A stretch of DNA of 64,000 bases, from assembly GCF_013315695.1 (NCBI RefSeq), contig NZ_CP054353.1; one strand, given 5' to 3'. Both the position numbers and the translations under genes were made by a program. The DNA is from Escherichia coli. Lineage in GTDB: Bacteria > Pseudomonadota > Gammaproteobacteria > Enterobacterales > Enterobacteriaceae. This document shows positions 22,559-25,778 of the stretch, in pieces. A model generated the notes under the pieces. It was not told the origin of the DNA. It was given only the letters and a program-made list of their open reading frames with translations, and ran no database searches. The first letter of the stretch is position 1. Each line of letters starts with the position of its first letter.

Positions 22559-23593
22559 GTGTCTGACGAGATCGACGACAAAACAGAAGCCCCCACACCT
22601 CACCGACTAGAAAAAGCGCGGGAAGAGGGGCAAATCCCGCGTTCCCGTGAACTGACTTCACTGCTGATTTTGCTGGTGGGCGTTAGTGTTATCTGGTTTG
22701 GCGGTGTGGCGCTGGCCCGTCGATTGTCGGGCATGCTCTCCGCAGGGCTGCATTTTGATCACAGTATTATCAATGACCCGAATCTGATCCTCGGGCAGAT
22801 TATTCTGCTGATCAGAGAAGCCATGCTGGCGCTGTTACCGCTGATTAGCGGCGTGGTGCTGGTGGCGATTATTTCTCCGGTTATGTTGGGGGGGCTGGTA
22901 TTTAGTGGAAAATCCTTGCAGCCGAAGTTTTCCAAACTCAACCCGCTACCGGGCATTAAACGGATGTTCTCGGCACAGACTGGCGCGGAGTTGCTTAAGG
23001 CAATTTTGAAAACCATCCTGGTTGGCAGCGTGACGGGGTTTTTTCTCTGGCATCACTGGCCGCAGATGATGCGCTTAATGGCCGAGTCTCCGATTACCGC
23101 CATGGGTAATGCGATGGATCTGGTAGGGCTATGCGCGCTGCTGGTGGTGCTTGGTGTCATTCCAATGGTGGGATTTGACGTCTTTTTCCAAATCTTCAGC
23201 CACCTGAAAAAGCTGCGAATGTCACGGCAGGATATTCGTGATGAGTTCAAACAAAGCGAAGGCGACCCCCATGTTAAAGGGCGGATCCGTCAGATGCAGC
23301 GAGCGGCCGCACGGCGTCGGATGATGGCCGATGTGCCGAAAGCGGATGTCATTGTCAATAACCCGACCCACTATTCGGTAGCGTTGCAGTATGACGAAAA
23401 CAAAATGAGCGCACCGAAAGTGGTCGCTAAAGGTGCAGGGCTGGTCGCGCTGCGCATTCGTGAAATTGGCGCTGAAAATAACGTCCCGACGCTTGAAGCG
23501 CCGCCGCTGGCGCGTGCGCTGTATCGACATGCGGAGATCGGTCAACAAATCCCGGGTCAACTGTACGCCGCGGTGGCGGAAGTGCTGGCCTGA
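22559..23593 (+). CDS. flhB: flagellar export apparatus protein FlhB, truncated at codon 345 by a premature TGA (possible pseudogene)
   Basis: GTG start, MSDEIDDKTEAPTPHRLEKAREEGQIPRSRELTSLLILLVG...; ORF stops at TGA 23591-23593, whereas the following 38 in-frame codons (VWQLKRWRLAGGQRP...EALDFINEKPTHE) still run to a TAA at 23705-23707 that overlaps the flhA start. Confidence 0.85.
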   Translation: MSDEIDDKTEAPTPHRLEKAREEGQIPRSRELTSLLILLVGVSVIWFGGVALARRLSGMLSAGLHFDHSIINDPNLILGQIILLIREAMLALLPLISGVVLVAIISPVMLGGLVFSGKSLQPKFSKLNPLPGIKRMFSAQTGAELLKAILKTILVGSVTGFFLWHHWPQMMRLMAESPITAMGNAMDLVGLCALLVVLGVIPMVGFDVFFQIFSHLKKLRMSRQDIRDEFKQSEGDPHVKGRIRQMQRAAARRRMMADVPKADVIVNNPTHYSVALQYDENKMSAPKVVAKGAGLVALRIREIGAENNVPTLEAPPLARALYRHAEIGQQIPGQLYAAVAEVLA

Positions 23594-23699
23594 GTCTGGC
23601 AACTGAAACGCTGGCGTCTGGCTGGTGGACAACGCCCTGTACAACCTACTCATCTTCCGGTGCCGGAAGCCCTGGATTTTATTAACGAGAAACCGACCC

Positions 23700-25778
23700 A
23701 TGAGTAATCTGGCCGCGATGCTGCGCCTGCCTGCAAACCTGAAATCGACACAATGGCAGATCCTTGCCGGACCGATTTTGATCCTGTTGATCTTGTCGAT
23801 GATGGTACTGCCACTGCCCGCATTCATACTCGACCTGCTGTTTACCTTCAATATTGCCTTGTCGATCATGGTGTTGCTGGTGGCGATGTTTACCCAGCGC
23901 ACGCTTGAGTTTGCTGCGTTTCCGACCATCCTGTTGTTTACCACGCTGTTGCGTCTGGCACTTAACGTGGCTTCAACCCGTATCATTTTGATGGAAGGGC
24001 ATACCGGCGCGGCGGCGGCTGGAAAGGTGGTCGAAGCGTTCGGTCACTTCCTCGTTGGTGGCAATTTCGCTATCGGTATCGTGGTGTTCGTCATTCTCGT
24101 GATCATCAACTTTATGGTTATCACCAAAGGTGCCGGGCGTATTGCGGAAGTGGGCGCGCGCTTTGTTCTCGATGGTATGCCGGGTAAGCAGATGGCGATT
24201 GACGCCGACCTTAACGCCGGATTGATTGGTGAAGATGAAGCGAAAAAACGCCGCTCCGAAGTGACTCAGGAAGCCGATTTTTACGGCTCGATGGACGGGG
24301 CAAGTAAGTTTGTTCGCGGCGATGCCATCGCCGGGATCCTCATCATGGTCATTAACGTTGTCGGCGGATTGCTGGTCGGTGTGCTGCAACATGGCATGAG
24401 CATGGGGCACGCGGCGGAAAGTTATACGCTATTGACCATTGGCGACGGTCTGGTGGCACAAATCCCGTCACTGGTGATTTCTACCGCCGCGGGCGTCATC
24501 GTTACACGTGTCAGCACCGATCAGGATGTTGGCGAGCAGATGGTGAATCAGCTTTTCAGTAATCCGAGCGTTATGTTATTAAGCGCCGCCGTGCTCGGTT
24601 TACTCGGCCTGGTGCCTGGAATGCCGAACCTGGTATTTTTGCTGTTCACTGCCGGATTGCTGGGGCTGGCGTGGTGGATCCGCGGACGTGAACAAAAAGC
24701 GCCTGCCGAAGCAAAACCGGTAAAAATGGCAGAGAATAATACCGTTGTCGAAGCGACGTGGAACGATGTACAACTGGAAGATTCTCTGGGAATGGAAGTG
24801 GGTTATCGACTGATCCCGATGGTCGATTTCCAGCAGGATGGTGAGTTGTTGGGCCGTATACGCAGTATCCGCAAGAAATTTGCCCAGGAGATGGGGTTTC
24901 TGCCGCCAGTGGTACACATTCGCGACAATATGGATCTGCAACCTGCCCGCTATCGCATTTTGATGAAAGGCGTGGAGATAGGCAGTGGTGATGCTTATCC
25001 GGGGCGTTGGTTGGCGATTAACCCTGGAACCGCTGCCGGGACGTTACCTGGTGAGGCGACCGTCGATCCGGCATTTGGCCTGAATGCTATCTGGATTGAA
25101 AGTGCGCTTAAAGAGCAGGCGCAGATTCAGGGGTACACCGTGGTTGAGGCCAGCACGGTGGTGGCAACGCATCTTAACCACCTCATTAGCCAGCATGCCG
25201 CAGAGCTGTTTGGTCGTCAGGAGGCGCAACAGCTGCTGGATCGCGTCGCCCAGGAGATGCCAAAGCTGACGGAAGATCTCGTTCCTGGCGTCGTCACGCT
25301 TACCACACTGCATAAAGTGCTGCAAAATCTGCTCGATGAAAAAGTGCCGATTCGCGATATGCGCACCATTCTCGAAACGCTGGCGGAACATGCGCCCATC
25401 CAAAGCGATCCGCATGAATTAACCGCCGTCGTGCGCGTAGCGTTGGGACGGGCGATTACCCAGCAGTGGTTTCCTGGCAAAGATGAAGTCCATGTTATTG
25501 GCCTCGATACACCGCTGGAACGTTTGTTGCTACAGGCATTGCAGGGCGGGGGGGGACTGGAGCCAGGGCTGGCGGATCGTTTACTGGCGCAAACTCAGGA
25601 AGCGCTATCCCGTCAGGAGATGTTGGGTGCGCCGCCGGTACTGTTGGTGAACCACGCGCTGCGACCATTATTGTCTCGCTTCCTGCGCCGCAGCTTGCCG
25701 CAGTTAGTGGTGCTGTCGAATCTGGAACTATCAGATAACCGACATATCCGTATGACGGCGACGATTGGCGGCAAATAA
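23700..25778 (+). CDS. flhA: flagellar export apparatus protein FlhA
   Basis: 692 aa from ATG 23700 (MSNLAAMLRLPANLKSTQWQILAGPILILL...); track ORF extends 25 codons upstream. Confidence 0.95.
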   Translation: MSNLAAMLRLPANLKSTQWQILAGPILILLILSMMVLPLPAFILDLLFTFNIALSIMVLLVAMFTQRTLEFAAFPTILLFTTLLRLALNVASTRIILMEGHTGAAAAGKVVEAFGHFLVGGNFAIGIVVFVILVIINFMVITKGAGRIAEVGARFVLDGMPGKQMAIDADLNAGLIGEDEAKKRRSEVTQEADFYGSMDGASKFVRGDAIAGILIMVINVVGGLLVGVLQHGMSMGHAAESYTLLTIGDGLVAQIPSLVISTAAGVIVTRVSTDQDVGEQMVNQLFSNPSVMLLSAAVLGLLGLVPGMPNLVFLLFTAGLLGLAWWIRGREQKAPAEAKPVKMAENNTVVEATWNDVQLEDSLGMEVGYRLIPMVDFQQDGELLGRIRSIRKKFAQEMGFLPPVVHIRDNMDLQPARYRILMKGVEIGSGDAYPGRWLAINPGTAAGTLPGEATVDPAFGLNAIWIESALKEQAQIQGYTVVEASTVVATHLNHLISQHAAELFGRQEAQQLLDRVAQEMPKLTEDLVPGVVTLTTLHKVLQNLLDEKVPIRDMRTILETLAEHAPIQSDPHELTAVVRVALGRAITQQWFPGKDEVHVIGLDTPLERLLLQALQGGGGLEPGLADRLLAQTQEALSRQEMLGAPPVLLVNHALRPLLSRFLRRSLPQLVVLSNLELSDNRHIRMTATIGGK

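Follow-up and report, generated by a model that had tools for sequence, protein, structure and literature searches.

A natural opal codon in flhB of an Escherichia coli clone is probably part of the decay of a disused flagellar regulon

C-terminal nonsense and frameshift alleles of Salmonella flhB that bypass FliK were reportedly first described by Kutsukake in 1994 and Williams in 1996. Premature stops of this kind, at Q349, W353 and Q359, have since been re-isolated, as motile revertants that bypass FliK (PMC13344023). In the crystal of Salmonella FlhB-C, residues 229–353 are ordered and residues 354–383 are invisible (PMC3640470). FlhB 1–350, 1–355 and 1–360 are described as functional (PMC7771051) and the tail as dispensable for motility (PMC3640470). 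In the enterobacterial protein the tail packs on helix α4 and regulates switching, and deletion of the proline-rich region from Shewanella FlhB lowered both the abundance of the protein and flagellation (PMC7771051).

Nature also provides FlhB-like proteins that evolved without a tail. Aquifex FlhB is naturally short (350 aa), and when such proteins are aligned to E. coli FlhB, the alignments end at around residue 343–350: YscU and EscU cease to align, and SpaS is almost at its end, by about query residue 343–348, with Aquifex FlhB extending to about 350. At the level of whole strains, a described parallel is provided by O1:K1 isolates that PCR types as H7 and that are yet non-motile (Mora 2009, PMC2713252).

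The allele considered here lies in a 64,000-nucleotide stretch of an E. coli genome (contig NZ_CP054353.1), referred to below as the window. The flagellar genes described below from the window itself lie on the plus strand. From the ORF listing and translation, the flhB frame (22559–23593) opens with GTG and comprises 344 codons followed by an opal stop, TGA, at 23591–23593, giving a product that ends ...LYAAVAEVLA. Beyond the TGA, the old frame continues for 37 codons to a TAA at 23705–23707; translated in a single frame, 22559–23707 reads ...AEVLA, the opal stop, VWQLKRWRLAGGQRPVQPTHLPVPEALDFINEKPTHE and the final stop. The interval 23594–23707 holds the orphaned codons 346–382, which would encode the last turns of helix α4 and the proline-rich tail, together with the old TAA. 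This former end of flhB overlaps the flhA ATG (23700) by 8 bp, and the NCBI pipeline annotates flhB at 22559–23707 and flhA at 23700–25778 in a near-identical genome, matching the coordinates here. A preliminary description, made from the letters alone, had reported both the truncation to 344 residues and the persistence in frame of the old C-terminal codons up to the flhA overlap, and translation bears out each of these exactly. It had also given K-12 FlhB as a protein of 382 residues with tryptophan at this position, which is correct (flhB of strain ER1709 is 1149 nt long, with TGG at codon 345), and had taken the difference to be a single-base opal mutation rather than an alternative gene end. 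That reading holds, since K-12 and the two nearest sister genomes, MS 21-1 and AF14, all have G at 23593. Within flhB, this base, A in the window and G in the sisters, is the sole difference between the window and those two genomes. The codon affected, ancestrally TGG, is that for Trp345, equivalent to Trp346 of Salmonella (E. coli residue numbers are offset from those of Salmonella by +1 in the alignment); it is TGA in the window and in the complete genomes AF3 and MSB1_4I, and TGG in MS 21-1, AF14 and K-12.

In its position the stop resembles the Salmonella FliK-bypass alleles: it ends translation early, where helix α4 finishes or the proline-rich tail begins, and leaves the membrane domain, the NPTH site and the folded core in place. 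Unlike the 349, 353 and 359 alleles, it falls at equivalent residue 346, whereas the shortest allele of Salmonella that we found documented as functional stops three codons farther downstream. It thereby removes about eight ordered residues of helix α4 (346–353 in Salmonella numbering), because of which the truncated protein could be unstable. It differs further from the laboratory alleles in being natural, fixed in a clone and known here from sequence alone, and in that its complete E. coli relatives lack not only fliK but the whole of the fliE–fliR block. The likeness to Aquifex FlhB, YscU, EscU and SpaS extends to the point at which the proteins end and is limited by the loss, in the truncated E. 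coli protein, of part of helix α4 as well as the tail.

The family models show what is retained. Against TIGR00328 (FlhB; cut-off 349 bits) the 344-aa product scores 457 bits, its residues 6–344 lying on profile positions 1–339 of 348; PF01312 was recorded for it, and it covers 335 of the 341 positions of the SctU model. Against NF009117, which describes full-length enterobacterial FlhB with the proline-rich tail, it scores 547 bits, below the cut-off of 712 bits, and the match ends at profile position 345 of 386, the tail codons falling past the stop. The NPTH autocleavage motif is present (...VIVNNPTHYSVAL..., aligned to Salmonella N269/P270), as is the gene context cheZ–flhB–flhA–flhE. In FlhB(1–344) the membrane domain and the NPTH site remain, as does almost all of the folded cytoplasmic domain, and only the end of helix α4 and the proline-rich tail are lost, in agreement with the earlier statement that the extreme C terminus of the cytoplasmic domain is missing. 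Taken alone, and judged by analogy with the Salmonella alleles, such a protein would be expected to fold, to cleave itself and to support export that depends less tightly on FliK; rather than a null, it would probably be a functional part of the export machinery whose switch is loosened.

The stop is rare among complete genomes and well represented elsewhere. When a 57-nt probe centred on it was compared with 4873 complete E. coli genomes, two matched at 100% identity and the rest had at least one mismatch. Close relatives whose FlhB also ends ...AEVLA are found only inside one clone, the sisters MS 21-1 and AF14 and 4870 other genomes being without the stop. The change from TGG to TGA at 23593 is derived and fixed in one clone. 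The exact 344-aa protein is present on 682 public contigs, in 1099 index blocks (NCBI, ENA and Logan), and the TGA was confirmed in both of the contigs bearing it that were fetched (L008 and L009); the clone is widely sampled in collections from human blood, gut and urine. In AF3 and MSB1_4I, the NCBI pipeline classes flhB as a pseudogene and notes an "internal stop". The stop is real and already annotated, and flhB is best read as an ordinary pseudogene produced by a known kind of gene decay. A literature search found no paper on the W345stop allele, on the fliE–fliR deletion described below or on the full set of lesions.

Over 20 kb of housekeeping genes in the window, the closest genomes are of the ST73-type B2 group (99.6%; CFT073 and ATCC 25922 among them), and the fliC of the clone, which is of H7 type, is the same as in UTI89 and S88. 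Like the isolates of Mora 2009, the clone keeps an H-type fliC, while other flagellar genes have been disrupted by a point mutation, an inserted IS element or an IS-linked deletion. The non-motile group of that study belongs to ST59, phylogroup D/F; the O1:K1:H7 non-motile ST59 group was considered as the lineage of the window strain and is unsupported, given the housekeeping genes.

Another of the lesions affects the fli genes. In AF3 and MSB1_4I the gene order is yedK, IS1, a 90-bp fliR remnant and rcsA, and fliE–fliR is gone; the junction of the deletion is identical across 3 kb in the two genomes. Spanning fliE through most of fliR, the deletion removes the MS ring, the C ring, the export ATPase, FliK and FliPQR. 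The block is intact in the sisters MS 21-1 and AF14. Among long contigs with the clade-specific FliA, IS1 adjoins yedK in 24 of 24, and at the two loci fetched (L016 and L017) the sequence beyond IS1 matches the fliR-remnant region of AF3. Although the window does not extend to the fli region, the position of the window strain is informative: in the SNP tree, it shares with MSB1_4I three derived sites that exclude AF3, with no conflicting site, which places it inside the AF3/MSB1_4I clade. By parsimony on this tree, the window strain would also carry the fliE–fliR deletion.

A further lesion, within the window itself, interrupts motA. The 5′ fragment of this gene (11541–11819, plus strand, 93 codons) is cut off by an IS4 element of 1426 bp on the minus strand (11820–13245, delimited from BLAST breakpoints and end sequences), and the 3′ fragment resumes at 13246 and runs to 13866 on the plus strand. 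On either side of the element stands a copy of a 12-bp target duplication, CGGCAGATGGGG, the left one at 11808–11819 and the right one at 13246–13257, at the beginning of the 3′ fragment. The transposase ORF of the element (11833–13179) matches the IS4-family model NF033592 with 304 bits. The insertion is absent in AF3, MSB1_4I, MS 21-1 and AF14, and a search for the motA–IS4 junction among complete RefSeq genomes gave no matches; the 93-aa motA stub was found in 151 index blocks. The window is identical to neither of the two complete clone genomes, since its motA carries IS4 and its torY is free of IS1.

We consider it likely, with a probability of roughly 0.8, that flhB is a pseudogene and that its stop is among the steps by which a disused flagellar regulon is decaying. 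In this sequence of events, a G to A transition at 23593 made Trp345 an opal codon on the stem branch of one B2-type E. coli clone with an H7 fliC; flagellar function would have been lost in that clone by several lesions, the flhB stop and the IS1-linked fliE–fliR deletion among them; and the window strain additionally acquired IS4 in motA. The stop and the deletion fall on the same branch, because the sisters with TGG keep fliE–fliR and both genomes with TGA are without the block. With fliE–fliR lost and IS4 in motA, the clone would be unable to build or turn flagella whatever FlhB does, and it is very probably non-motile; questions of residual FlhB function and of flhB–flhA coupling would therefore be largely moot. 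The remaining flagellar genes are still intact (flhDC, motB, cheA, cheW, cheR, cheB, cheY, cheZ, tar, flhA and flhE, with fliA, fliZ, fliC, fliS and fliT intact in relatives), which argues that the decay is recent and has left only a weak mark of relaxed selection. On the stem branch, the motility genes carry four protein-changing and three silent changes, too few to inform. The interval 23594–23704 is identical to that of the sisters and differs from K-12 at a single base, a divergence too small to power a comparison for relaxed constraint.

An unlikely alternative is that the stop was itself a null and the first event to abolish flagellation, either because the shortened FlhB is unstable or because coupling to flhA was lost, with the later lesions being neutral. 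The removal of the ordered residues of helix α4 defined by the crystal structure (PMC3640470) and the effect of the proline-rich deletion in Shewanella (PMC7771051) would both fit with this, as would the arrangement upstream of flhA. Translation of flhB now ends 106 nt (23594–23699) before the flhA ATG that its former end overlapped, and only a weak, GAGA-like ribosome-binding site lies ahead of the ATG. Set against this are the Salmonella 349, 353 and 359 stops, which are likewise well upstream of flhA and gave motile cells; their recovery as motile revertants argues that the early flhB stop alone would not starve flhA of expression. The flhA gene itself (23700–25778, plus strand) is intact at 692 aa, with a clade-specific substitution, A257S, and so is flhE (25778–26170, plus strand), in which V14L is a substitution of the clade and A24V is private to the window strain.

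It is quite unlikely that the stop came first and left a working FlhB with a looser, or FliK-independent, hook–filament switch that was neutral or favored, the deletion and the motA insertion following later. Laboratory truncations of FlhB that are 3 to 13 residues longer are described as export-competent and motile (PMC13344023; PMC7771051; PMC3640470), the tailless relatives end at much the same residue, and the sister genomes, in leaving the stop and the deletion on one stem branch, permit either order. However, the search turned up no genome in which the stop accompanies an intact fliE–fliR block, the deletion is present in every complete genome that bears the stop, there is no sign of selection, and the allele has a single origin, being carried by 2 of 4873 complete genomes. 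The fuller proposition, that W345stop predates the deletion, encodes a working FlhB freed of an inhibitory tail, as a natural equivalent of the Salmonella FliK-bypass truncations, and spread in a flagellate clone, is distinctly improbable. Its spread could have come about through a looser or weaker export switch that lowers the display of flagellin in the host, and low-level readthrough of UGA as tryptophan might have helped. Were it true, this would be the first population-level tuning of the flagellar specificity switch through FlhB.

Readthrough merits separate comment. Near-cognate readthrough of UGA inserts tryptophan, and UGA followed by G is a relatively efficient context for termination. 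That the TGA is read through or recoded, for example as Trp by near-cognate tRNA-Trp, to give a useful level of full-length FlhB is very improbable, even though the inserted residue would equal ancestral residue 345 and one FlhB per export gate suffices. The base after the stop is G, the clone lacks the remainder of the apparatus, and only that clone carries the stop (2 of 4873 complete genomes), which is not conserved across lineages that use flhB. Moreover, no recoding signal has evolved, because the sequence past the stop is the unchanged ancestral coding sequence; this and the confinement to one clone are the grounds on which a recoding or selenocysteine-type reading was rejected. An error of sequencing or assembly in the window, for which nothing speaks beyond the single-base nature of the difference, can be dismissed, as two complete genomes of UK and Australian origin, assembled independently of each other, share this base, and the exact truncated product is found on the 682 contigs from several sources, gut metagenomes included.

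Read as part of the decay of a disused regulon, the flhB stop has little significance on its own and modest practical value. It adds one more case of flagellar decay in a host-adapted E. coli clone that retains its H7 flagellin gene, so that genome-based H typing would assign H7 to a strain that is very probably non-motile. The stop codon, the IS1-linked fliE–fliR deletion and the motA IS4 provide clean markers for the clone and its sub-branches. The allele, three codons from the laboratory truncations used in work on the export specificity switch, could serve as a natural switch variant only in a flagellate background. Lesions in other genes are also found in these genomes. Between tar and cheR, the window holds a remnant of the tap chemoreceptor gene (19134–19285, plus strand), an older lesion common to the sister genomes: according to the pipeline annotation, tap is frameshifted and incomplete at matching coordinates in AF3, MSB1_4I, MS 21-1 and AF14. 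Finally, fliD has an internal stop in AF14 and is shorter by 75 nt in MSB1_4I.

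The flhB reading frame opens with GTG at 22559 and closes at a TGA at 23591-23593, yielding, by ORF listing and translation, a product of 344 aa with the C terminus ...LYAAVAEVLA. Translated as a single frame, 22559-23707 continues past the TGA through VWQLKRWRLAGGQRPVQPTHLPVPEALDFINEKPTHE to a TAA at 23705-23707, and this ancestral end of flhB overlaps flhA, whose ATG lies at 23700, by 8 bp; NCBI annotation of a near-identical genome gives exactly the same flhB and flhA coordinates. K-12 flhB is of the same length as the ancestral frame and has TGG at codon 345, and position 23593 is the sole flhB difference from the nearest sister genomes, MS 21-1 and AF14. 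The preliminary description had proposed that this TGA truncates FlhB through a single-base change of a codon that specifies Trp in K-12. The frame, coordinates, and 344-aa product all match that account, the base change is 23593 G to A, and the core interpretation is supported, TGG to TGA being derived with respect to both K-12 and the sisters.

A 57-nt probe around the stop found a perfect match in two of the 4873 complete E. coli genomes having the probed flhB region, with at least one mismatch in the rest. In these two, AF3 from a blood culture in the UK and MSB1_4I from a rectal swab in Australia, the NCBI pipeline reports an internal stop in flhB and tags the gene as a pseudogene. The exact 344-aa protein was present in 682 contigs and 1099 index blocks across NCBI, ENA, and Logan, with gut metagenomes and strains KTE69 and KTE143 among the sources. 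Because two complete genomes and 682 contigs share the allele, sequencing error is ruled out as the origin of the TGA, and the stop is real and has become fixed within a single clone that is widely sampled.

Considered on its own, the truncated protein retains the membrane domain, the NPTH cleavage site, and almost its entire fold, having lost ∼8 ordered residues of helix α4 together with the tail, and it scores above the TIGR00328 cut-off in a profile search. Alignment places residue n of E. coli FlhB at n+1 of the Salmonella protein, and the stop is therefore equivalent to Salmonella W346stop. In the crystal structure of the Salmonella cytoplasmic domain, residues 229 to 353 are ordered and 354-383 invisible, and the tail is described as not required for motility, its loss having scarcely any effect where fliK is wild type (PMC3640470); in Shewanella FlhB, a proline-rich tail packs against helix α4 (PMC7771051). 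Salmonella Q349stop, W353stop, and Q359stop are motile revertants that bypass FliK (PMC13344023), and FlhB 1-350, 1-355, and 1-360 are functional according to the summary of Inoue 2019 in PMC7771051. At about residue 343-348 the alignment of injectisome relatives to FlhB stops and SpaS is close to its end, whereas the alignment of Aquifex FlhB reaches ∼350. The Salmonella alleles, the dispensable tail, the short relatives, and the profile match together suggest a working protein, switch-relaxed or mildly weakened, rather than a null. The stop does lie 3 codons beyond the range of the functional Salmonella truncations, and the 344-aa protein may be unstable. The Salmonella stops at 349, 353, and 359 likewise end translation well before flhA, and the cells are motile all the same, which speaks against flhA expression falling severely once flhB-flhA coupling is broken.

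Lesions elsewhere in the motility genes alter how the flhB stop is to be read. Outside the window, AF3 and MSB1_4I have the gene order yedK, IS1, a 90-bp fliR remnant, and rcsA, with the whole fliE-fliFGHIJKLMNOPQ block and most of fliR missing, as are the ompC-like gene, ybcM, ybcL, and emrE, which lie between yedK and fliE in the sisters. The IS1-linked junction (29106-29904 of the AF3 locus L010; 20022-20820 of the MSB1_4I locus L011), ∼20 kb upstream of the window start, is identical in the two genomes over 3 kb, and the deletion is therefore a single event. In each of the 24 long contigs that encode the clade-specific FliA variant, IS1 adjoins yedK, and in the two of these that were fetched the sequence beyond IS1 matches the AF3 fliR-remnant region. 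The block is intact in MS 21-1 and AF14. A cell that lacks the MS ring, C ring, FliI, FliK, and FliPQR cannot build a flagellum, regardless of the state of FlhB.

The polarity comparison took in the window, AF3, MSB1_4I, and the two nearest TGG genomes, MS 21-1 and AF14. Thirteen sites, 23593 G to A among them, were polarized to the stem of the clade formed by the first three. The window is identical to neither AF3 nor MSB1_4I; it shares with MSB1_4I three derived sites absent from AF3, with no conflicting sites, and its strain therefore nests within the clade and, by parsimony, probably carries the fliE-fliR deletion too. The flhB stop and the deletion fall on the same branch, this stem, where substitution density in the region is ∼0.6 per kb. 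A rough estimate from our own approximations (∼35 kb of remaining motility coding sequence; ∼5% of substitutions creating stops) gives about one nonsense mutation expected by chance on the stem. Neutral decay of flhB after the deletion is compatible with these figures, but not proved by them.

Loss of flagellar genes is well known from host-adapted Escherichia and Shigella, and flhB here is a pseudogene created by a nonsense mutation, within a flagellar regulon that is undergoing loss. It is already flagged in RefSeq, and as an ordinary, annotated pseudogene its biological significance is low; the sole mildly interesting angle is its value to export-switch studies as a natural neighbor of the laboratory FlhB truncations. 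Our literature search found no paper on the stop allele or the fliE-fliR deletion. The fliC allele is H7, the same as in UTI89 and S88. The case resembles published isolates typed as H7 by PCR but unable to swim (PMC2713252). That group, ST59, may be a different lineage, the housekeeping genes of the window being closest to ST73-type B2 genomes.

Further flagellar lesions occur in and around the clade. A frameshifted tap remnant of 152 bp (19134-19285), between tar and cheR, is older than the flhB stop, being shared by the clade with MS 21-1 and AF14. In AF14, fliD has an internal stop (L013 42126-43532) and fliC is 9 nt shorter, and MSB1_4I fliD is 75 nt shorter (L011 13229-14560); the fliD lesions are independent, and flagellar genes are being hit repeatedly across the wider lineage.

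Within the window, motA (11541-13866) is interrupted after codon 93 by a 1426-bp IS4 (11820-13245) with a 12-bp target duplication, CGGCAGATGGGG, and a transposase to which the IS4 family model gives 304 bits. The insertion should paralyze the motor and probably lowers expression of the downstream motB, cheA, and cheW. The identical 93-aa MotA stub occurs in 151 index blocks, and the junction in none of 5426 complete RefSeq genomes. Contigs of E. coli lineages ∼2.5% diverged from the window (L018-L023) hold IS4 at the same exact site, in both orientations, which points to a recurrent target hot spot, for which the literature search found no paper. The flanks of other IS4 copies resemble the motA target over ∼18 nt. 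One of these contigs, from a gut metagenome and a different lineage, also has flhC split into 66-aa and 118-aa pieces (L021 9296-9874), a split that may be genuine additional damage or may come from misassembly.

Two of the three window-private substitutions are in motility genes (25848, flhE A24V; 21548, silent, cheY codon 81). In the uspC-flhD intergenic region (9704-10482), the five otherwise near-identical genomes have 11 variable sites in ∼560 bp upstream of flhD, three of them on the clade stem, versus about one per 1.5 kb elsewhere; this could reflect a patch of recombined sequence, or selection acting on how flhDC is regulated. A Mu-like prophage in dgcQ, whose product is a diguanylate cyclase regulating cellulose synthesis, occurs in the clade and AF14 (L010 25517-26464, AF3; L011 23462-24409, MSB1_4I; L014 19063-20010, AF14) and absent from MS 21-1, and AF14 may thus be the closer sister. 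An IS1 in torY (L004 30078-30775 in AF3; window site 30053-30062) is found in AF3 and 8 of 24 long contigs with the flhB stop, is missing from the window and MSB1_4I, and is a useful marker of a sub-branch.
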